From: an uncultured Clostridia bacterium
Lineage (GTDB): Bacteria; Bacillota; Clostridia; TANB77; CAG-508
DNA length: 64,000 nt
Reading direction: 5' to 3'
Assembly: GCA_963931155.1 (NCBI GenBank)
Contig: OZ006978.1
Coordinates: 1,300,692-1,364,691 of the forward strand
Below, piece by piece: positions 5,674 to 54,647 of this stretch. Position 1 is the first letter of the stretch, and each line of letters starts with the position of its first letter. Under the pieces are notes generated by a model. It had not been told where the DNA came from and ran no database searches. It was given only the letters and a program-made list of their open reading frames with translations. The position numbers and the translations under genes are program-made.

Positions 5674-5745
5674 TGTCAGTTTTAGGGACAGGCTCTTTTC
5701 TGCCAAGTTTGTCAGCTTTGGGGACAGGCTTCAATCTACAAAATT
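5674..5745 (+). repeat. two tandem copies of a ~36-bp repeat unit (tgtcaNNtttNgggacaggctc...tgccaaNtt)
   Basis: Direct repeats read in the rpsO-pnp intergenic region. Same family as the array at 15051-15278. Confidence 0.6.
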
Positions 5746-5882: not shown

Positions 5883-8003
5883 ATGGTTAAAACTTATAGT
5901 ACAGAATTAGCAGGAAGAAATTTAAGTATTGAAACAGGTAAAATAGCAGGACTAGCAAATGGAAGCGTAGTAGTAAGATATGGAGATACAGTTGTAATGG
6001 TAAATGTTACAGCTTCGAAAGAGCCAAGAGAAGGAATAGACTTTTTTCCACTTTCAGTAGATTATGAAGAAAAATTATATTCAGTGGGAAAAATTCCTGG
6101 GGGATTTAACAAAAGAGAGGGAAAACCATCAGAAAAGGCAATACTTACATCAAGAGCAATAGATAGACCTCTTCGTCCTCTATTTCCAAAAGATTTTAGA
6201 AATGATGTATGTGTTACAGCAACAGTATTATCAGTTGAGCAGGATAATAGTCCAGAAGTTTGTAGTATGATTGGTGCAAGTGCTGCACTTTCAATTTCAG
6301 ATATACCATTTGGAGGACCAACTGCAGCAGTAGCCGTTGGCTGGGTAGATGGAGAAATAGTTATTAATCCAACAGTAGAGCAAAGAAAAAGAAGCAAATT
6401 AACTGCAACAGTTGCAGGAACATTAGATAAAATAACTATGATAGAAGCAGGAGCAGATGAAATACCTAATGAAAAAATGTTAGAAGCAATTGAAAAAGCT
6501 CATATTGAAATTAAAAACATTTGTAATTTTATATCGGATATAAAAGCAGAAATAGGAAAGCCAAAATTTGAATATAAATCATTTGCAGTAGATCCGGAAT
6601 TTTATCAAGATATTGTTGAGCATTTCAAAGATAGAATGTATCAAGATGTACAAGCTACAGATAAAGAAGTAAGAGATGCAAATATAGATAAAATAACAGA
6701 AGATATTACAGCTTATGTTATAGAAAAATATGGCGAAGAGGCAGAAGAGGAGAGAAAATCAGACATAGCAGACAGTATACATGACTTAGAAAAAGCATGT
6801 GTAAGAGAGATGATATTAAAAGAGCACAAACGTCCAGATGGTAGAAAAATTGATGAAATAAGACCTCTTTCATGTGAAGTTGGAGTACTTCCAAGAGTAC
6901 ATGGAAGTGCAATTTTCACAAGAGGACAAACACAAGTAATGTCAATTGTAACACTTGGAATGAAAAGTGAAGAACAAATATTAGATGGAATTGATGAAGA
7001 AACAGAAAAAAGATATATGCATCAATATAATTTCCCTTCATATTCAGTAGGTGAAGCAAGACCATCAAGAGGTCCAGGAAGAAGAGAAATAGGGCATGGA
7101 GCTTTAGCAGAAAAAGCATTAGTTCCAGTATTACCATCAGAAGAAGAATTTCCATATGCAATAAGAGTAGTATCTGAAGTATTATCTTCAAATGGATCAA
7201 CATCACAAGCAAGTATCTGTGGTAGTACATTAGCATTAATGGATGCAGGTGTTCCTATTAGAAAGCCAGTTGCAGGAATTTCAACAGGACTAGTAACAGA
7301 TAAAGAAGATACAAGTAACTATATAATGCTTACAGATATTCAAGGAATAGAAGACTTCTTTGGAGACATGGACTTTAAAGTAGGTGGTACAAAAGATGGA
7401 ATAACAGCAATACAAGTTGATATAAAAATAGATGGTTTAACATATGACATAATAAAAGAAGCATTTGAAAGAACAAAAGTTGCAAGAGATTATATATTAG
7501 ATGAAATAATGCTTCCTGTTATAGATAAACCAAGAGCAGATATTTCTAAATATGCACCAAGAATAAATACAACACAAATAAGTGTAGACAAAATAAAAGA
7601 TGTAATAGGACCTGGCGGAAAAATGATTAATAAAATTATTGAAGAAACAGGAGTAAAAATTGATATTGAAGAGGATGGCAAAGTTTGTGTTTATTCAAAT
7701 GATCCAGAAAGTGGAAAAAAAGCATTAAAAATGATTGAAAATATTGCAAGAGAAATTGAAGTTGGTGGAATATATGATGGTATAGTTACAAGAATAATGT
7801 CATTTGGAGCATTTGTAGATGTAGGAGGAGGAAAAGAAGGATTACTTCATATATCGAAAATTTCAAATAAAAGAGTTGAAAAAGTTGAAGATGTACTTTC
7901 TGTAGGTGATGAAGTTACAGTAAAAGTATATGAAATAGACCATCAAGGAAGAATAAATTTAACAATGAAAGACTTAGAAGCAGGAAATAAAGAAGAAGAA
8001 TAG
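5883..8003 (+). CDS. pnp: polyribonucleotide nucleotidyltransferase (PNPase)
   Basis: 706 aa with two RNase PH domains, KH and S1 domains. Canonical N-terminus and conserved motifs. Confidence 0.95.
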   Translation: MVKTYSTELAGRNLSIETGKIAGLANGSVVVRYGDTVVMVNVTASKEPREGIDFFPLSVDYEEKLYSVGKIPGGFNKREGKPSEKAILTSRAIDRPLRPLFPKDFRNDVCVTATVLSVEQDNSPEVCSMIGASAALSISDIPFGGPTAAVAVGWVDGEIVINPTVEQRKRSKLTATVAGTLDKITMIEAGADEIPNEKMLEAIEKAHIEIKNICNFISDIKAEIGKPKFEYKSFAVDPEFYQDIVEHFKDRMYQDVQATDKEVRDANIDKITEDITAYVIEKYGEEAEEERKSDIADSIHDLEKACVREMILKEHKRPDGRKIDEIRPLSCEVGVLPRVHGSAIFTRGQTQVMSIVTLGMKSEEQILDGIDEETEKRYMHQYNFPSYSVGEARPSRGPGRREIGHGALAEKALVPVLPSEEEFPYAIRVVSEVLSSNGSTSQASICGSTLALMDAGVPIRKPVAGISTGLVTDKEDTSNYIMLTDIQGIEDFFGDMDFKVGGTKDGITAIQVDIKIDGLTYDIIKEAFERTKVARDYILDEIMLPVIDKPRADISKYAPRINTTQISVDKIKDVIGPGGKMINKIIEETGVKIDIEEDGKVCVYSNDPESGKKALKMIENIAREIEVGGIYDGIVTRIMSFGAFVDVGGGKEGLLHISKISNKRVEKVEDVLSVGDEVTVKVYEIDHQGRINLTMKDLEAGNKEEE

Positions 8004-8016
8004 TTTATAAAATAGG

Positions 8017-8140
8017 AATTGTGCCAATGGAGACAGTGAAGTGAACCCAAATTATTAGACAAAAAAGTTTAATAAGGAGGGTTCATTTTCATGTGTACTG
8101 AACCCATTGGCACAATTGTTTTATATAAAATTAAAAAAAC
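8017..8140 (+). terminator. large compound hairpin terminator downstream of pnp
   Basis: Perfect 14-bp outer stem (aattgtgccaatgg / ccattggcacaatt) enclosing competing inner pairings (gtgaaccc, gggttca, ctgaaccc). Followed by a T-rich tract. Confidence 0.55.
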
Positions 8141-8279
8141 GAGCCCGTTTTCTTTTGTAAATTTTAAAAAAATTAATTTTTTATAAAAACTGTTGTAAAA
8201 AGTTGTAATAATTGATATACTAATGGTATTAAAAAAGCGTAACATGCTTTTTCTTAGAATTCTTTAAGGAGGTAAAGTA

Positions 8280-8729
8280 ATGGAAGATAATAAAGAAATA
8301 AATGAAGTTACAAACAATGTAGAAAATGAAGGAGAGGTAACACTTGAAAATAATTCAAACATAAAAATAGCAGATGACGTTATTGCGGTTATTGCCGGAG
8401 CAGCAGCTTCAGAAGTGCCAGGAGTTTCTTCAATGGCAGGAGGTTTCGCAGGAGGAATTTCTGAAGTGTTTAGTGGTAAGAAAAACTTTGCTAAAGGTAT
8501 TAAAGTGGAAGCTGGAGAAAAAGAAACTAGAATAGATGTTAACATAATCGTGGAATATGGAGTAAGAATTCCAGATGTTGCTTTTGAAATTCAAAATAGA
8601 GTTAAAAAAGCTGTTGAAAGTATGACTGGACTAAAAGTTTTAGATGTAAATGTTCATGTTCAAGGTGTTAATACTGATGCAAATAATGTAGAAGAAATGA
8701 AACAAGATGGTTCTAATAAACCAGAATAA
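8280..8729 (+). CDS. Asp23/Gls24 family alkaline shock protein
   Basis: Asp23-type sequence (ADDVIAVIAGAAASEVPGV...). SD AAGGAGG. Confidence 0.85.
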   Translation: MEDNKEINEVTNNVENEGEVTLENNSNIKIADDVIAVIAGAAASEVPGVSSMAGGFAGGISEVFSGKKNFAKGIKVEAGEKETRIDVNIIVEYGVRIPDVAFEIQNRVKKAVESMTGLKVLDVNVHVQGVNTDANNVEEMKQDGSNKPE

Positions 8730-14338: not shown

Positions 14339-15058
14339 TTGGCTTTAAAAGTAAAAAAGAATATAAAAGCAATTATAATAATCTTTTTAGTTAGCTCAAT
14401 ATTTATTTCATACAATGTGTTCTTTAGAAATAACGAGATATATGCATTATCTAAATATGGCTCAAGAGGAGAAGAGGTAAGAACAATACAAACAAAATTA
14501 AAAAGATGGGGATATTATAACGGAAATGTGGATGGAATATATGGAAGTCAAACATTAGAAGCAGTAAAAAGATTTCAAAAAAAGAATGGATTAGTAGTAG
14601 ATGGAATAGCAGGAACTAAAACATTACAAGCAATGGGAATATTTAACTCATCAGGGAACAGTGGAAATTCAGGAAGTTCATCGAATAATTCAAGTTCATC
14701 AACAAATTCAAATGATTTAAACTTATTAAGTAGACTGGTGTATGGAGAAGCAAGAGGAGAACCCTATACAGGGCAAGTGGCAGTAGCAGCAGTGGTTTTA
14801 AATAGGGTAAGAAATAGCTCATTTCCCAATACTGTATCAGGAGTAATTTATCAAAAAGGAGCATTTGATGTAGTAAGTGATGGACAAATAAATTTAACCC
14901 CAAATGATACTGCAAAAAAAGCAGCACAAGATGCATTAAATGGGTGGGATCCATCTAATGGAGCAATATACTATTTTAATCCAGCAACAGCTACTAATAA
15001 ATGGATTTGGTCTAGACCAATGACAGTCACAATAGGAAAACACAGATTTTGCAAATAA
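14339..15058 (+). CDS. cell wall hydrolase (SleB/CwlJ-type) with peptidoglycan-binding domain
   Basis: PG_binding_1 motif (RWGYYNGNVDGIYGSQTLEAVKRFQ), Ser/Asn linker, SleB-like C-terminal domain (GEARGEPYTGQVAVAAVVLNRV). Apparent TTG start. Confidence 0.75.
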   Translation: MALKVKKNIKAIIIIFLVSSIFISYNVFFRNNEIYALSKYGSRGEEVRTIQTKLKRWGYYNGNVDGIYGSQTLEAVKRFQKKNGLVVDGIAGTKTLQAMGIFNSSGNSGNSGSSSNNSSSSTNSNDLNLLSRLVYGEARGEPYTGQVAVAAVVLNRVRNSSFPNTVSGVIYQKGAFDVVSDGQINLTPNDTAKKAAQDALNGWDPSNGAIYYFNPATATNKWIWSRPMTVTIGKHRFCK

Positions 15059-15278
15059 AATGTCAGTTTAGGGGACAGGCTCTTTAGTGCCATTTATGTC
15101 ACTTTTAGGGACAGACTATACCTTAAATTTATCTATATCACTTTTAGGTAACAGGCTACTAAAAGAAAATCTATTATAACTGAGTAGAGCCTGTCCCCAT
15201 TGATGACAAGTCTGGCACAAAAGAGCCTGTCCCCATTGATGACAAGTCTGGCAGAAAAGAGCCTGTCCCTTTTGGTGA
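15051..15278 (+). repeat. array of the ~36-bp repeat: three forward then three inverted units, forming a long imperfect palindrome
   Basis: Units tgtcagtttaggggacaggctc... followed by three reverse-complement units gagcctgtccccattgatgacaagtctggca. Two of the reverse units are identical. Confidence 0.65.
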
Positions 15279-15307
15279 CAAGTTTGGCAAAAGCACTTGA
15301 AAAAAGT
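15279..15307 (+). terminator. rho-independent terminator
   Basis: Hairpin aaagcactt-gaaaaa-agtgcttttttc. Confidence 0.6.
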
Positions 15308-19411: not shown

Positions 19412-19500
19412 GAACAAAGCGACCTTGGTCGCCCTTTGTTCTTGCCAATTTGAGTATCCAACAGCAATGAGGAAATCTCAAAAGCAATGGTGATTATAAC
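19412..19500 (-). repeat. core of the interspersed MITE/PATE-like element (inverted orientation) with terminator-like hairpin
   Basis: Reverse complement matches the core found at 28544-28639 and 32672-32767. Hairpin gaacaaagcgacc/ggtcgccctttgttc immediately after the mutS stop. Confidence 0.55.
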
Positions 19501-28511: not shown

Positions 28512-28672
28512 GTAATAGGAAATTTCTCCGAAATTCCTATTACATAAAAAGGCTATAATCGCTATTGCCTTTGAGATTTCCTCCTTGACGTCGGAAACTC
28601 AAATCGGCAAGAACAAAGGGCGACTGCGTCGCTTTGTTCTGTAATAGGAAATTTCTCCGAAGTTCCTATTAC
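28512..28672 (+). repeat. complete MITE/PATE-like element: 32-nt palindromic hairpin + 96-nt core + 32-nt hairpin
   Basis: gtaataggaaatttctccgaaattcctattac at both ends. Core ends with gaacaaagggcgac-tgc-gtcgctttgttc. Confidence 0.6.
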
Positions 28673-29961: not shown

Positions 29962-30010
29962 ATAAAATTACTTTATTATCTTAGCACAAAAAAAAAATTA
30001 ATGCAAGAGA

Positions 30011-30062
30011 AAAAAGAAAAAAACATGAAAAAAGTAGAGGCCCCCGTTTGCACGGAGGCCTC
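30011..30062 (-). terminator. GC-rich rho-independent terminator of the Cys-rich gene
   Basis: gaggcccccg-tttgca-cggaggcctc followed on the - strand by a U-tract. Confidence 0.7.
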
Positions 30063-30099
30063 AGATAGAACCAGCTCTGAATTTAGTCCGTCAGAAGAG

Positions 30100-30543
30100 T
30101 TACTTCTTCCAGAAGTAGAGCTGGAGCTTCTCCTCATCCACCTTGACGATGACCGCCAAGAAGCGATCGTCCTCGAACAAGAACGTGTTTGCCGCCTTGT
30201 CGTTGCAGACTTCCCAGTGGTCGTCCTTGAAGTAGACGCCAGGTATGGCGGTAGGGTTCAGCATGTCGAAGCACGACAGCTTAACCTTGGTGTTGGGATA
30301 ATCGCAGATGGGGGTCAAGACATGAATCGCCGTAGCGATCTCGATGCCCGTGGTGCCGGTCGAGCCGAGGAGTGCATCCACGACATAGGGGTCGCAGTTG
30401 TATGCACATGTGCCCTCGTCATAGACCATGTAGGCGGTCCGGCTGCCCAGAATAGCTAGCACCTTGTCGGTGTTATCACTCTTCCGAGCGTAGTGAGAGA
30501 AGCAGTTGTGAGGACAATAGCCCTCAGATTCGAACTTAGCCAT
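30100..30543 (-). CDS. hypothetical Cys-rich protein (CPHNC ... CAYNC), 147 aa, GC-rich
   Basis: About 53 % GC against a ~28 % background. Perfect SD AAAGGAGG 8 nt upstream. Own promoter and terminator. Confidence 0.6.
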   Translation of the reverse strand: MAKFESEGYCPHNCFSHYARKSDNTDKVLAILGSRTAYMVYDEGTCAYNCDPYVVDALLGSTGTTGIEIATAIHVLTPICDYPNTKVKLSCFDMLNPTAIPGVYFKDDHWEVCNDKAANTFLFEDDRFLAVIVKVDEEKLQLYFWKK

Positions 30544-30619
30544 AGTTGTATACCTCCTTTAGTTGTAATGTGCCGATATGGCTAGTATCGACAATTGTAT
30601 CCCCATTTGGGGCTTACAA

Positions 30620-30652
30620 GTAAATTATACCACAATTAACATAAAAAGGCAA
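30620..30652 (-). promoter_or_regulatory. near-consensus sigma-A promoter with extended -10 (TTGCCT-17-TGGTATAAT)
   Basis: Read on the - strand upstream of the Cys-rich gene. A CCCCAAATGGGG hairpin sits in the 5' UTR. Confidence 0.55.
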
Positions 30653-30806
30653 ACTGACGAAGTATGTAAAAAAATTAAAAGTATAATTTTTAGGACTTTA
30701 TTAATAGAGTGATATAATTAAATATCACTTACATCTATATTCCTTGAAAACATAGGTAAATTATGGTAAAATAAATAATATAAATTGAAAAAATGGAGAT
30801 GAGCAT

Positions 30807-31802
30807 ATGGATAATTTTATTATAGATGAATTTGAAAATTCAAAGCCACCAAGAAAAGAGGAAGGCAAAAAACAACATTCGCTTGAAGGCAAAAGAAGAA
30901 AAAGTATTATAACAATATTTGAACAATCTGGTGGATTAATAGGACCAGAAGAAATTGCAGATGCTTTAGATATTGATTTAGAATTAGTGAAAAGAATATT
31001 AGGAGTAAGGAGAATAGAACAATATGAAATATTAGTAGGTAAAAAGAAACCTACTATACCTAAAAGAGATCGTAGGAAAAAAGCGAATCCATCTGAAGAA
31101 AAAGAAGAAGAAAAGTTAGATAGAATTATTATTGAAAGAAATAAAGAAATATTTGAATTAAGTACTCAAGGAATGAGTTTAGCTGAAATTCATGAAAAAA
31201 CAGGAATAAGCATAGATTTATTAAAAGAAATATATATGTCTTTAGGATTAAATATATATACTGACGAGGAAATAGAAGAGATGAGAAGACAAGCTGAATC
31301 TGTTAGCCAAAATCCAAAAACAGTTATTGCGCCAGAGACTACTGAGAAAAGTGCGAGTGGAGTAAAAGGAGAGATAAAAGCAGATAGCAAAAAAATGGAC
31401 AGAGCTATAGATTTGCAAGAAGGTGGTAAAACTAAAGAATACGGAGAAAGCAGAGTTCAAGAAGAAGTGGATAGTGAAAAGGTAAGTTCAAAAGGAGATG
31501 TAGATGAGCAAGAAAATGGTGAAGAAGGAAATTCTAAAAATAAAGAACAAGAACTTGAAGAATTAAAAGCTAAAATAACAAGTTATGGAGACATTGGAAA
31601 AATGATAAAAGGATTTATAGCAGAGGGGAGAATTGAAGATGCAATAAAATATGGCAAATATTTTATGAACAATTCAGACTTTTTAACAAAAATAGAAAAA
31701 GATAATTTATTTGTTTTAATAGAATATATGAAATCAATAAAAACACAACATTTTCAACCACGTTGTATGGGAGAAATTTCAGATGAAGAAGAAATGAGAT
31801 AA
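30807..31802 (+). CDS. K/R-rich protein with two DeoR-like HTH modules
   Basis: HTH modules (SIITIFEQSGGLIGPEEIADALDIDLELVKRIL; EIFELSTQGMSLAEIHEKTGISIDLLKEI). C-terminal region similar to that of the 33308 protein. Confidence 0.6.
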   Translation: MDNFIIDEFENSKPPRKEEGKKQHSLEGKRRKSIITIFEQSGGLIGPEEIADALDIDLELVKRILGVRRIEQYEILVGKKKPTIPKRDRRKKANPSEEKEEEKLDRIIIERNKEIFELSTQGMSLAEIHEKTGISIDLLKEIYMSLGLNIYTDEEIEEMRRQAESVSQNPKTVIAPETTEKSASGVKGEIKADSKKMDRAIDLQEGGKTKEYGESRVQEEVDSEKVSSKGDVDEQENGEEGNSKNKEQELEELKAKITSYGDIGKMIKGFIAEGRIEDAIKYGKYFMNNSDFLTKIEKDNLFVLIEYMKSIKTQHFQPRCMGEISDEEEMR

Positions 31803-31823
31803 AAAGTTGATTAAAAGCATATA

Positions 31824-31852
31824 ATTGACAATTTACATAAAACATACTATAA
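31824..31852 (+). promoter_or_regulatory. consensus sigma-A promoter TTGACA-17-TATAAT
   Basis: Exact consensus hexamers with 17-nt spacing, about 95 nt upstream of the GC-rich ORF at 31948. Confidence 0.6.
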
Positions 31853-31947
31853 TAAAGAATAAGCCTTAAAAGGCATAGTAGCAAGCATAAAAGTTAGGAG
31901 GACAACCTAGTAAGGTTTGTAGTATTGAACAGTAAAAAAGGAGAAAA

Positions 31948-32475
31948 ATGAGTAGTGTAGTTGTGAGGTTTAAAGAGGAGATGACTTTTCCTCACGTAGA
32001 AGATGCAGGTAAAATCAAATGGCGGGGAGGTTATATCCTAGATGATGTCACAGGAATCCTGGAAGGATACATCGAGGAAGACATCAATGGGGTTCCCGCT
32101 GATGAACAGCGCCGTGCATGGATTTTAGGAATTTGCAAAGGTGCTAGATGGTGCTTCAACTGGTTCGGAAGTAAGAACTTTGACTTCCCTATCACAATCA
32201 GATTCTTTGATGGCAATTTGAACGAGGGAATTCTAGTAGCACTAGGGTCGAAAGACGATAGAAACATTGATATGATTGAAGTCGGCTATTCGACTATTCA
32301 AGCGACAAGACTATCCGGAGAGTGCACAGAAGCAAAAGAAGTAATCAAGAGCATCGTTGAAGATATTAAGGACAGTATCTATCTCCCTGAATTTGACATA
32401 ACAGCTATTGCCCTAAATGATATTGATAATTGGGCTAAATCCTACTACCGACGGAAGACGGGACGTCCTTGGTAA
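31948..32475 (+). CDS. hypothetical protein, 175 aa, GC-rich, no recognised family
   Basis: About 43 % GC. Strong SD AAAAGGAG. Followed by a cctcctttttaggagg hairpin. Confidence 0.6.
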   Translation: MSSVVVRFKEEMTFPHVEDAGKIKWRGGYILDDVTGILEGYIEEDINGVPADEQRRAWILGICKGARWCFNWFGSKNFDFPITIRFFDGNLNEGILVALGSKDDRNIDMIEVGYSTIQATRLSGECTEAKEVIKSIVEDIKDSIYLPEFDITAIALNDIDNWAKSYYRRKTGRPW

Positions 32476-32551
32476 CTAACGGTGCTAACAAAAAAAGAAC
32501 AATGTTCTTTTCCTCCTTTTTAGGAGGTTTTTCTTTTTGTCTTTTTAATGA

Positions 32552-32767
32552 TATAATAGGAATTCCTTCTTATAGTCGGAAACCTAAATTGGCAAGAACA
32601 AAGAACAAGGTTGCCCCCTTGTTCTTTGTTCTTAGTTCTGTAATAGGAAATTTCTCCGAAATTCCTATTACAGAAAAAGGCTATAATCGCTATTGCCTTT
32701 GAGATTTCCTCCTTGACGTCGGAAACTCAAATCGGCAAGAACAAAGGGCGACTGCGTCGCTTTGTTC
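32552..32767 (+). repeat. MITE/PATE-like element: diverged core + 32-nt palindrome + full core, abutting the ssrA 3' end
   Basis: Same hairpin and core as at 28512-28672. The partial core keeps the terminal stem through covarying changes. Confidence 0.6.
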
Positions 32768-32782
32768 AAATCAAAATGTAAT

Positions 32783-33142
32783 TGGTGGAGATGAGGAGAG
32801 TCGAACTCCTGTCCAATAATCCTTCCACATGAACTTCTCCGAGTGCAGTTTGTTAAAAAAATTCCCTAAAAAGAAATTAACAAACAAATTTGTTTTTTAG
32901 GTAGTCAAATAAATACCCTTCATTCCTATGACACGGAAATAAATTCGTTTCCCACATATATGACGTTTTATCTAAAGCTGTGGGGAGCTAAAGAAAAACG
33001 AGCTACTAATCTTAAGCAGCGTAAGCTAATTCTTTATTATCAGCGTTTATATTTAAATTTCGCTTTTTTATAGTGGCCAAAGCGACCATCCACTACTCGC
33101 TATTCATACTTCTGGGTTATTGTCGAAACCAAATACATCCCC
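32783..33142 (-). ncRNA. ssrA: tmRNA (ssrA)
   Basis: On the - strand: 5' GGGGAUGUAUUUGGUUUCGACA, 3' GGAGUUCGACUCUCCUCAUCUCCACCA (T-arm and acceptor). Internal tag ORF reads ...GCU GAU AAU AAA GAA UUA GCU UAC GCU GCU UAA. Confidence 0.9.
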
Positions 33143-33307
33143 ATAAAAAGTACAATAATAATTATACTATAATTATAAAAAAAAAACAAGATATATGATT
33201 ATTACAAACTAAATATTATTTGTAATGTTCATATGATTTATTTACTTGAAAAAAGTATTTGAAAATGTTATTATAATTATGTAAATTAATTATAGGGAGA
33301 AAATCGA

Positions 33308-34768
33308 ATGCCAACTAAATTAGATGAAACAGGAGATAGAAGAAAACAAATATTAGAATTATTAAACGAACAAGGTAGAACTATAGAAGAAGTTTATACT
33401 TTTTTTAGTAATGTACCTCATAATGTAATTGAAAGGGATATAAGATATCTTATTAGAAATAAATTATATCAGCCATATAATATAATATTGAGTAGAAAAA
33501 TAGAAAATGATAATAGTAGAAGTGGAGAAAAAACAGATACAAATAGTGAAACTGAAGGCAACGTTGAGAACACAGAAAAAGAAGATAATTTAACAAGACA
33601 AGGAAGACGACCAACAAGAAGGAAAAAAAAGAAATCACCATTTGATGCTAAAACAAGAAGAGAGAAAGTATTACAAAGATTAAAAAACACTTTAAAAACG
33701 CAAGAACAAATTGCATCAGAATTAGGAGTATCAAAGGGAGTAATTTCTACTGATATACAATTTTTTATAATAAGTGGAATTATAACACCAGAAGAACATA
33801 AAACTAGAAAAAAACAAATAAAACAATTGGCTAAACATAAAAAATCACCCCAAATAGAACAAAGAAGGAAGCAAATATTAGAGTTAATACATAGTACAAA
33901 TATGACACAGAAACAAATAGGAAAAGAAATAGGTTTATCGCAAACAGCGGTTTCGAAAGAAATAAGATATTTAGTAAGTATGGGATTAATATCACAAGAA
34001 ACTTTGGAAAATAGAAAAAAACAATACAAAAGAAATAAAAAAGTAAGAAGTATTACACCAAAAAAGAAAAAAGAGCGAAAAGCATCGAATATGAAAAGAA
34101 AGAGAATAGGGCAAGTGTTGTATTTAATAAAAAATAAATATATGGCTCAAAGTGAGATAGCTGTATTACTAGGAGTATCAAGAAAAACTATATGTAAAGA
34201 TGTAGAATACTTAGTGGAAACAGGTATGCTAAAAAAAGAAGAAGTACAAAGTGCGGCAAAAAAAAGAGTACAAATAAGAAGAACAAGAGTAATTGAATTA
34301 ATAAGAAGAGGAAAATTACCTAAAGTTTTAAGAAAGAGTATTGCAGAAGAATTAGGTGCTGGAACAGCTACTATTTCTGTGGATGTAAAAGTTCTAATAG
34401 AGCAAGGTTTGATTGAAGAAGACGAAAAAGGAGAGTTAAGAGTAGTAGAATCTAAGATTGCAGAGAGTGAATTACTATCAGATGCATTATATTTAGAACA
34501 ACAAGAACAAGAGGAAGATAGTTTAAGTATGACTTCAGAAGAAAAAGAATGTTTATTGATGATGTTTAGACAAATAAGAAAATTGTCATTTGGGGGAAAT
34601 TTAGATAAGGCAATTAGAAATCTAGGATTGGTAAAAGAAATGTTTGGTTTTTCTAAAGAAAAATTAAAACAATTAGAAGATATAGAAAGTTTTTTAAGAG
34701 AAGAAAGCAATAAAAAACAAAAAAATGCTGACAGAAAAGCATCTGGAGAGGAGATAGGAGATAGATAG
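33308..34768 (+). CDS. protein built from five tandem DeoR-like winged-HTH modules separated by K/R-rich linkers
   Basis: Repeated R(R/K)KQILEL(L/I)... followed by HTH (TQEQIASELGVSKGVISTDIQ; TQKQIGKEIGLSQTAVSKEIRYL; AQSEIAVLLGVSRKTICKDVEYL; SIAEELGAGTATISVDVKVL). Confidence 0.65.
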   Translation: MPTKLDETGDRRKQILELLNEQGRTIEEVYTFFSNVPHNVIERDIRYLIRNKLYQPYNIILSRKIENDNSRSGEKTDTNSETEGNVENTEKEDNLTRQGRRPTRRKKKKSPFDAKTRREKVLQRLKNTLKTQEQIASELGVSKGVISTDIQFFIISGIITPEEHKTRKKQIKQLAKHKKSPQIEQRRKQILELIHSTNMTQKQIGKEIGLSQTAVSKEIRYLVSMGLISQETLENRKKQYKRNKKVRSITPKKKKERKASNMKRKRIGQVLYLIKNKYMAQSEIAVLLGVSRKTICKDVEYLVETGMLKKEEVQSAAKKRVQIRRTRVIELIRRGKLPKVLRKSIAEELGAGTATISVDVKVLIEQGLIEEDEKGELRVVESKIAESELLSDALYLEQQEQEEDSLSMTSEEKECLLMMFRQIRKLSFGGNLDKAIRNLGLVKEMFGFSKEKLKQLEDIESFLREESNKKQKNADRKASGEEIGDR

Positions 34769-34832: not shown

Positions 34833-35300
34833 ATGGAAGATCTGGAACTGGCAAATGTGGTTCTGGAAACAGTCCAACCGTGTGACGATGCAGAAGAGTT
34901 CTTCTACATCGCACAAGAAGGAGGTGTTAGAGAGTACGTCGGATTCATGTATCCAACTAGTCTGGAAAAGGCACGAGAAATCTTGGAGTTCTTGTGCGAT
35001 ATGAGATTCGAGTGCTTCAAGATTGTTGAGGAAGATACAGGTGACATGGTCGGAATCATTTTCGGCGACCCCCTAACCAGTACTATACTGGATGTTTCAT
35101 ACTTCATCGGTGATGAGTATCGATGCATGGGGTACTGCTCATCAGCTGTACGGCAGTTCGAAGAGTATCTGAGGGAGGAGACTTGCTACACAACCATGAG
35201 ATTCTTCGTAAGAGAAGATAACGCGGAGTCTCAGGGCGTGATGAACAAGCTTGGAATCCCTAATGCTTTCGGCAATGTCTACATGCTCGACCTTGACTAA
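34833..35300 (+). CDS. GNAT family N-acetyltransferase, GC-rich
   Basis: About 47 % GC. GNAT motifs (VGIIFGDP, YFIGDEYRCMGYCSSAVRQFEEYL, EDNAESQGVMNKLG). SD GGAGG and a TGG-extended -10. Confidence 0.7.
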   Translation: MEDLELANVVLETVQPCDDAEEFFYIAQEGGVREYVGFMYPTSLEKAREILEFLCDMRFECFKIVEEDTGDMVGIIFGDPLTSTILDVSYFIGDEYRCMGYCSSAVRQFEEYLREETCYTTMRFFVREDNAESQGVMNKLGIPNAFGNVYMLDLD

Positions 35301-54517: not shown

Positions 54518-54647
54518 TAATAGGAAATTTCTCTGAAATTCCTATTACATATAAAGGCTATAATCGCCATTGCCTTTAGGATTTCCTCCTTATAGTCGGA
54601 AACCTAAATCGGCACGAACAAATGGTGACTTCGACCTTTTGTTCTCC
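54518..54647 (+). repeat. MITE/PATE-like element (hairpin + diverged core) inserted between the T-box terminator and the thrS start
   Basis: gtaataggaaatttctctgaaattcctattac followed by a core of about 100 nt related to 28544-28639. Confidence 0.55.

Follow-up and report, generated by a model that had tools for sequence, protein, structure and literature searches.

We analysed two genes, here called A and B, in a window of 64,000 nucleotides from an uncultured Clostridia bacterium (the whole stretch of contig OZ006978.1 under study; 28.8% GC), and found that they encode HTH (helix–turn–helix) proteins of the DNA-binding type in an unnamed form, which joins a tandem array of complete HTH modules to a CTD (C-terminal domain) and an arginine-terminated tail, and which occurs as a gene pair. 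Gene A (33308–34768, + strand; 486 aa) was delineated by the list of ORFs (open reading frames), Pfam HTH matches, a module HMM (hidden Markov model) and AlphaFold2 modelling, and gene B (30807–31802, + strand; 331 aa) by the ORF list, an alignment and HMM of the B-type family and AlphaFold2. A first-pass annotation had described them as paralogues made of DeoR-like winged-HTH modules that flank ssrA, and the ssrA gene (tmRNA, tag ADNKELAYAA; 32783–33142, − strand; ARAGORN and Rfam) does lie between B and A. We propose that A would be a multivalent DNA binder and B its acidic partner or modulator, the two associating through the shared CTD, a reading to which we assign a probability of roughly 0.45.

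Protein A is strongly basic (pI 9.8, net charge +31, with a single linker accounting for +13) and is laid out as five diverged three-helix HTH modules with Lys/Arg-rich linkers, followed by a helical CTD and the tail. The five consecutive modules and their basic linkers, already recognized at first pass, were recovered by an HMM seeded with the five segments of A and iterated over homologues, which found exactly five modules in A at 30–48 bits each, and structure prediction with AlphaFold2 gave a three-helix bundle for every one of them, with block pLDDT (predicted local distance difference test) values mostly of 70–90. All on the + strand, they are module 1 (33338–33463, aa 11–52; 41 bits; helices 4–20, 26–32 and 38–50), module 2 (33656–33781, aa 117–158; 47.1 bits), module 3 (33863–33988, aa 186–227; 47.9 bits), module 4 (34106–34228, aa 267–307; 42.5 bits) and module 5 (34277–34444, aa 324–379 including a wing; 30.2 bits over aa 324–368). 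The linkers at aa 57–112 of A and aa 167–242 of B were disordered in the models. The term 'winged' holds for one module only: the three-helix HTH is present in all of them, but a β-hairpin wing was predicted solely in module 5 (aa 369–379, with strands at 369–371 and 377–379). Likewise, the R(R/K)KQILEL motif that was said to precede each module is actually helix 1 of the module itself, and is found verbatim only in modules 1 and 3.

The modules within A are approximately 30% identical to one another, and module 1 belongs to a divergent subtype (IYxxFSxxPxxVIxRDIRYL) common to the proteins P0012 and P0016. Over 364 instances the module consensus is RRxxVxxLYxxGKxxxEIAxELGVSxxTVxxDIxxLxxxG, and entropy peaks at column 15 and at columns 26, 27, 30, 31 and 35, the latter five being in the recognition helix, where an HTH would be expected to present residues to the bases. 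The closest relatives of the module among solved proteins are HTH proteins that bind DNA, namely SorC, LrpA/AsnC, NiaR, SpoIIID, GerE, RacA, an IS21-family (IS5376) transposase and sigma region 4.

The Pfam matches of protein A (25 of 56 listed) were, as listed, all to HTH families: MarR_2 scored 64.6 bits over three stretches, HTH_11 54 bits over four, Sigma70_r4 43 bits and HTH_DeoR (PF08220) 26.2 bits over the single stretch aa 266–310. Scanned alone, module 3 exceeded the Pfam cut-offs of MarR_2 (30.4 bits), Sigma70_r4 (26.9 bits) and HTH_5 (25.4 bits), and module 4 those of HTH_11 (25.7 bits) and HTH_DeoR (23.9 bits against a cut-off of 21), the other four modules having no match to the latter. 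Module 2 reached 23.6 bits with HTH_11, just under the cut-off of 25, module 5 was sub-threshold and module 1 gave no match. The DeoR-like label fits poorly: the PF08220 match is minor, with MarR_2, HTH_11 and Sigma70_r4 scoring higher, and the DeoR sensor domain DeoRC (PF00455) is not among the Pfam matches listed for A, nor among those of B; the C-terminal region alone matches no family. Membership of A in the DeoR, MarR, sigma or RNPP families was considered and rejected, the defining non-HTH parts of these families not having been detected. The MarR_2 matches cover the HTH core only (profile positions 9–55 of 61) and occur three times per chain, whereas a MarR protein of ~140–160 aa has a single winged HTH between dimerization helices. 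From the sigma-70 group only Sigma70_r4 and r4_2 match A, repeatedly, with region 2 not among the matches listed, and the NCBIfam sigma models scored far under their cut-offs. In NCBIfam, PHROGs and PADLOC, A matched only the HTH regions of regulator, sigma, Csa3/CARF-type and similar models.

Protein B is acidic (pI 5.1, net charge −14, with module 2 alone at −10) and comprises two diverged modules, a disordered acidic linker (31305–31523, + strand; aa 167–239, pLDDT <50, net charge −6), a CTD as in A and a tail. Module 1 (30882–31034, + strand; aa 26–76, helices 26–40, 47–54 and 58–76, pLDDT 82–90) and module 2 (31089–31244, + strand; aa 95–146, helices 95–120, 125–132 and 136–146; module HMM 21.8 bits, E 6e-7) both aligned with the A-type module profile in hhalign, at probabilities of 97.3% (E 2.2e-11) and 97.2% (E 3e-11) respectively, and AlphaFold2 modelled both as three-helix bundles (pLDDT 76–90), in agreement with the two modules first read in this protein. 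No significant match to B was found in Pfam, whether as a whole or per module, nor in NCBIfam, PHROGs or PADLOC. At its extreme N-terminus (30807–30833, aa 1–9) B carries a conserved peptide, M[DE]x[YF]hhD[DE][YF] (MDxYxxD[DE][YF]), which is common to B and the B-type proteins of four other loci (L003, L010, L011 and L016) and which may be a short docking motif.

A and B share a homologous TPR (tetratricopeptide repeat)-like helical CTD of ~65 aa and a short tail ending in Arg. In A the CTD (34535–34723, + strand; aa 410–472, CTD HMM 68.5 bits) has three helices (410–429, 432–445 and 450–472) with one hairpin motif resembling those of TPR and PPR (pentatricopeptide repeat) proteins, and is followed by a tail (34724–34765, + strand; aa 473–486) ending in ...EEIGDR. 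In B it has four helices (31524–31745, + strand; aa 240–313, pLDDT 85–90) and the tail (31746–31799, + strand; aa 314–331) ends in ...EISDEEEMR. The consensus of the domain is YxxMMIxxIKxxxKxGxIExAIxYLExLxxxxxFSxxE, with the core motif YKxGDIExAIxYLExL. BLASTP of A against B was not significant (E 0.78), and A against itself also gave nothing significant, but profile–profile comparison of the two CTDs in hhalign gave a probability of 94.9% (E 4.7e-8, 52 columns), and the B-family HMM also detected the CTDs of A-type proteins. Fusion forms link the A and B types: in P0014 an array of seven A-type modules runs on into a module 2 and a CTD of the B type, and in P0012 the A module-1 subtype comes after B-like N-terminal modules. 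Thus the paralogy of A and B, with the related C-terminal domain, is confirmed by profile methods at the sequence level, although it is invisible to BLASTP.

The CTD matched no family in Pfam or NCBIfam. Its profile aligned with consensus TPR/PPR chains in the PDB over profile positions 15–37 at E values down to 7e-11, which are inflated by the repeats of the targets, and Pfam TPR_6 and PPR reached E 0.02–0.03 only, in two of 24 members. Foldseek of the B model gave a weak resemblance to the TPR proteins FimV (TPR3), Sgt2 and LapB (E ~3). The C-terminal Arg was present in 25 of the 28 non-redundant CTD-bearing proteins, usually within [DE][DE]xR or EER, and was kept although the length of the tail after the CTD varies from 17 to 75 aa. 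AlphaFold2 left the tails of both A and B disordered.

Run exhaustively against 1.84 billion representative proteins, phmmer yielded 57 relatives at E≤1e-3, a number which agrees with the earlier remark that such an architecture is unusual. All 57 are HTH arrays, with 2–12 modules in 176–887 aa, and about half carry the CTD. None has a functional name, the sole name found being 'hypothetical protein [uncultured Gemmiger sp.]'. Word-indexed homologue searches returned only four or five matches each, and a CTD-profile search four short fragments. Scanning GTDB species representatives with A gave nothing, and with a four-sequence CTD alignment only two loci in MAGs (metagenome-assembled genomes), from an uncultured Clostridium sp. 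and an uncultured Gemmiger sp.; the family was not found in scans of JGI metagenomes and IMG/VR, and nothing relevant was found in the published literature on tandem or multi-HTH proteins and on the tmRNA tag. The exact sequence of protein A is carried by at least 23 metagenome contigs. The family is real and rare, unnamed and without annotation, and comes from Clostridia known only via metagenome assemblies. Both proteins of the window belong to it: A has five modules fitting the consensus and both modules of B fit by hhalign, each chain has the CTD and an Arg-terminal tail (...GDR in A and ...EMR in B), and the two genes are neighbours, separated only by ssrA and an insertion encoding 175 aa (ORF 31948–32475, + strand, between B and ssrA).

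A-type and B-type genes were neighbours in five other independent loci, which is every readable independent locus with flanking sequence. The order is B then A with an 18-nt gap in L010, A, B and B′ in L003, A then B in L011, A, B and a further CTD-bearing ORF in L016, and B, ssrA and A in L012. Family members with 2–12 modules are present in these five loci and in L015. The two genes are directly adjacent in four of the five (L003, L010, L011 and L016), and ssrA lies between B and A in the window, L001 and L012, that is, in the genus of the window only; a tmRNA scan of L003, L010 and L011 found none. Since other lineages have A and B adjacent, with no ssrA where scanned, the ssrA-flanking arrangement is a feature of the genus and the pair is the conserved unit. 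The stress laid at first pass on the position around ssrA thus does not generalize; that position is incidental, and what is conserved is the gene pair. The pair is flanked by uvrA and gpr in L003 and L010, where ytxC is also close; it precedes gpr in L016, and in L015 the A-type gene follows uvrA. Where enough flanking sequence is available, the loci include sporulation genes (gpr, ytxC and spoIIP). In L015, a long-read assembly, the A-type gene (6322–8297) is broken into three ORFs of 262, 267 and 98 aa and the preceding uvrA is split too, probably through frameshift errors, although a pseudogene is possible.

Comparison of the window with its more distant relative L012 gave dN/dS (the ratio of non-synonymous to synonymous substitution rates) values of 0.30–0.45 for the modules of A and 0.24 for the CTD of B, against ~1.1–1.3 for the long linkers and ~1.07 for the acidic linker of B. 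Selection acts on the folded parts and spares the linkers, as would be expected if these are genuine proteins in which free linkers join folded modules. Codons 1–200 of A (33308–33907) and positions 1686–2285 of L012 are near-identical DNA with a dS of 0.017, whereas the remainder of the gene has a dS of 0.36, which argues that gene A is a recombination mosaic, with a breakpoint that this sequence comparison places inside module 3. Identity between the window and L001 also shifts in blocks along the window (98.5, 96.8, 97.7 and 93.9%). In other family members some modules are 90–100% identical within one protein, which argues that the arrays expand by recent tandem duplication.

On the strength of the opposite charges of A and B and of the DNA-binding relatives of the module, we infer that A is a multivalent DNA binder, that the CTD serves association and that B is a modulator or adaptor. 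Each module of A would touch a short site through its recognition helix, the basic linkers would add non-specific affinity, and A might thereby regulate multiple sites or be a nucleoid-associated protein. The CTD present in both would mediate protein–protein contacts, whether between like chains, between A and B, or with a partner on which both dock, and B would not itself be a strong DNA binder but a modulator or adaptor. Several points weigh against this proposal. The A–B interaction is deduced only from synteny and the shared domain, and the acidic modules of B may not be DNA-binding at all. HTH and winged-helix domains can also bind protein or RNA, SelB and Rpc34 being examples. Neither a candidate operator nor a repeated site was found near A or B, and no operator motif is shared by their upstream regions, in which the longest common words are AT-rich 9-mers. 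The overall dN/dS is fairly high (~0.6), and constraint is therefore weak. Confidence in the models is moderate (mean pLDDT 69.5 for A and 62.7 for B, from alignments of five or six sequences), Foldseek of the whole models of A and B returned nothing significant (best E 0.1–0.2), and there is no experimental or annotated functional information on any member beyond 'hypothetical protein'.

A more specific version of the same proposal, which we regard as unlikely but as the best placed of the alternatives, is that A and B form a developmental chromosome-organizing pair that would compact, coat or anchor the chromosome in sporulation, resembling RacA or the SASPs (small acid-soluble proteins) in function while being unrelated to them. 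Every locus with enough flanking sequence comes from a spore-former, spoIIP lies downstream in the window, the module has weak sequence matches that include the HTH of RacA, and the pair or its A-type gene keeps the company of uvrA and gpr described above, between the two in L003 and L010 (with ytxC near), beside gpr in L016 and after uvrA in L015. The product of gpr is the germination protease, which degrades SASPs. However, synteny with gpr is no evidence of function, A and B are not near gpr in the genus of the window, and the promoter-like sites upstream of the two genes resemble those of the housekeeping sigma-A and not those of sporulation sigma factors, as far as consensus matches go. 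These sites, both on the + strand and each a consensus match only, have TTGAAA, a 17-nt spacer and a TG extension, and end in TAAAAT 5′ of B (30744–30772) and in TATTAT 5′ of A (33246–33274); promoter consensus matches in the region are no more numerous than chance, which is a caveat on the site upstream of B.

Somewhat less probable again, and in our view doubtful, is that the modules do not bind DNA, but form a multivalent protein scaffold (for example sigma-region-4-like RNA polymerase decoys) or an RNA binder. The Sigma70_r4 score on the whole of A, the weak resemblance of the B model to sigma factors in Foldseek, the acidic modules of B and a weak Foldseek match to SelB, the tandem winged helices of which bind RNA, all fit such a role. 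A is, however, highly basic and its linkers are rich in Lys and Arg, most of the variable columns of the module fall within the recognition helix, the closest solved relatives are DNA binders, and no sigma region 2 is among the Pfam matches listed.

With as little confidence, the DNA-binding proposal might be extended to a bacterial counterpart of zinc-finger or TALE (transcription activator-like effector) arrays, in which the modules would read sub-sites via the hypervariable positions of their recognition helices and the arrays would grow and shrink by duplication, while the CTD and the ...[DE][DE]xR-COOH tail would drive a tail-into-domain association of A with B, or a head-to-tail polymerization, to make a tunable multivalent reader or organizer of the chromosome in gut Clostridia that form spores. 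The docking of an acidic Arg-terminated tail into a TPR-like domain is speculation by analogy. In the carboxylate clamp of Hop, CHIP and Sgt2, which act with Hsp70/Hsp90 and the EEVD terminus, a TPR domain is likewise combined with a conserved acidic C-terminus, and this suggests that the tail might dock in the TPR-like domain in trans; the analogy is a pure one, however, as the terminal residue here is Arg rather than Asp and the tails are disordered in the models.

The window also contains arrayed 36-bp repeats, which the first-pass annotation had put forward, speculatively, as candidate targets of the modules. The core GGGGACAGGCTCT (unit GTCAnTTTTAGGGGACAGGCTCT) has six matches against 0.35 expected, and TRF (Tandem Repeats Finder) gave a period of 36, 2.9 copies and a score of 173. 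Two opposed arrays of approximately three copies each (15051–15160, + strand, and 15186–15289, − strand) share one intergenic region, and a two-copy array lies at 5674–5745 (+ strand); judged from sequence, the layout is an inverted array resembling a MITE (miniature inverted-repeat transposable element) and not a simple tandem repeat. That the HTH array reads these repeats (5674–5745 and 15051–15289), one module per repeat, is improbable. The arrays are real and non-random, and a multi-module protein would be a natural reader of arrayed sites, but nothing connects the repeats with A or B: they lie 15–25 kb away, no copy is near either gene and no motif is shared upstream, so that the analysis gave the suggestion no support. 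Moreover, with identities of only ~30% and differing recognition helices, the modules of A would fit five different sub-sites better than identical units, and a 36-bp pitch (~120 Å; 1 Å=0.1 nm) is long for the shortest linker of 13 aa.

Least probable of all is that A and B were brought in by a mobile element or island integrated at ssrA, a classic integration site for islands, or that they are domesticated transposase HTH arrays: ~950 bp beside the 3′ end of ssrA are missing from L012, module-like HTHs occur in IS transposases, and a Bacillus mycoides plasmid and mycobacteriophage DS6A encode other HTH arrays, but no integrase, transposase or phage gene was found nearby, tblastn of A against a phage collection was empty, PHROG matches were to generic HTH families only, the flanking genes are core chromosomal (efp, M23 peptidase, recJ, relA and hisS), other lineages have the pair between uvrA and gpr with no ssrA where scanned, and the base composition of A and B is that of the genome (26–34% GC), unlike that of the GC-rich insertions described below.

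Among known systems, single-domain HTH regulators (HTH_11, MarR, ArsR, sigma-70 region 4 and GerE) share the ~40-aa three-helix module with 'xEIAxxLGVSxxTVxxDI', but theirs is one HTH with a sensor or dimerization domain that acts as a dimer on palindromes, whereas here there are 2–12 modules per chain, no ligand-binding domain was detected and the CTD is unrelated to their domains. SelB WH1–4, Rpc34/TFIIE, Myb R1R2R3 and the CENP-B/paired domains also have several HTH-type domains per chain and multivalent contacts, and SelB and CENP-B were weak Foldseek matches of the models. Theirs, however, are two to four fixed, non-equivalent domains, whereas here the copy number runs from 2 to 12 with long basic linkers and tandem duplication has left modules up to 100% identical; no homology is detectable beyond the generic fold. 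RNPP regulators (PlcR, NprR, Rap and PrgX) are Firmicute proteins that likewise pair an HTH with a helical domain of the TPR type, but have one XRE-type HTH and 5–9 TPRs forming a peptide pocket, compared with two to five non-XRE, sigma4/HTH_11-like modules and a CTD of three or four helices with one TPR-like hairpin here.

Other uncharacterized tandem HTH arrays are WP_215559763.1 of the Bacillus mycoides plasmid p74 (645 aa) and gp64 of mycobacteriophage DS6A (302 aa), in which ~11 and ~5 HTH modules respectively match the module HMM, and whose annotations go no further than 'hypothetical protein' or 'DNA binding protein'. Both are without the CTD or the Arg tail, have no B-type partner annotated alongside and show identities of 23–29%, and they reside on a plasmid and in a phage, whereas A and B are in the chromosomal core. 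In the PDB, only 8VD6 matched the module profile several times in tandem, with five repeats of the unit RREVRELIEEGKTAEEIAEILGLSVDEIK at 27 bits each (E 1e-32). This chain is a de novo designed 'CAP repeat' of 5×33 residues from ProteinGenerator (PMC12339374). It is an artificial, linker-free solenoid with a 33-residue repeat and no known DNA binding, in contrast with the linker-joined modules of A and B, and the likeness reflects generic HTH-like sequence statistics and not homology or function. A generative model has thus yielded a tandem HTH-like repeat similar to the modules of a natural family.

The genes around A and B in the window and L001 are efp, an M23 peptidase gene, gtrA, tRNA-Trp, and genes for a GNAT protein and a GT4 glycosyltransferase, as well as ylbF, recJ, relA, hisS and, downstream, spoIIP, and by gene content this neighbourhood is the core chromosome of a spore-former. 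Three GC-rich genes lie close to the pair. A segment at 30040–30736 (~50–57% GC in a genome of 29% GC) contains a gene (30100–30543, − strand) with a perfect ribosome-binding site (AAGGAGG) and a hairpin terminator (30028–30087), encoding a 147-aa Cys-rich protein with no match in Pfam, NCBIfam, PHROG, PADLOC or PDB; the segment is present in L001 and wholly missing from L012. A structured RNA was considered for the GC-rich stretch at 30000–30600 and rejected, as it has no Rfam match and holds this minus-strand ORF. A second single-gene insertion (31808–32760, ~44% GC) adjoins the 3′ end of ssrA, with a perfect promoter (TTGACA, 17-nt spacer, TATAAT) at 31825–31853; its gene (31948–32475, + strand) encodes the 175-aa protein, for which no family match was found. 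This insertion is missing from L012, where ssrA directly follows B. The GNAT acetyltransferase gene just 3′ of A (34833–35300; ~46% GC, rich for this genome) is present in L012, unlike the other two. A short dispersed element, TCGGAAACYYAAATYGGCAAGAACAAAG, has five copies in the window against zero expected (19434–19461 on the − strand, and 28591–28618, 32576–32603, 32719–32746 and 54596–54623 on the + strand). The two copies inspected, at 32576 and 32719, lie between the 175-aa gene and ssrA and are each followed by a hairpin, and from its sequence the element looks like a MITE or a REP (repetitive extragenic palindromic)-like intergenic element.

Bacterial DNA-binding proteins almost always have one HTH per chain and obtain valency through oligomerizing, so that 2–12 complete HTH modules on a single chain would represent a different bacterial design for recognizing or organizing DNA. 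With its acidic partner gene, private CTD and near-invariant C-terminal Arg, the family could be a natural scaffold on which to design modular DNA binders. It is restricted to gut Clostridia that are uncultured and apparently form spores, and if the pair proves to be a lineage-specific nucleoid protein, the finding would be a modest one.

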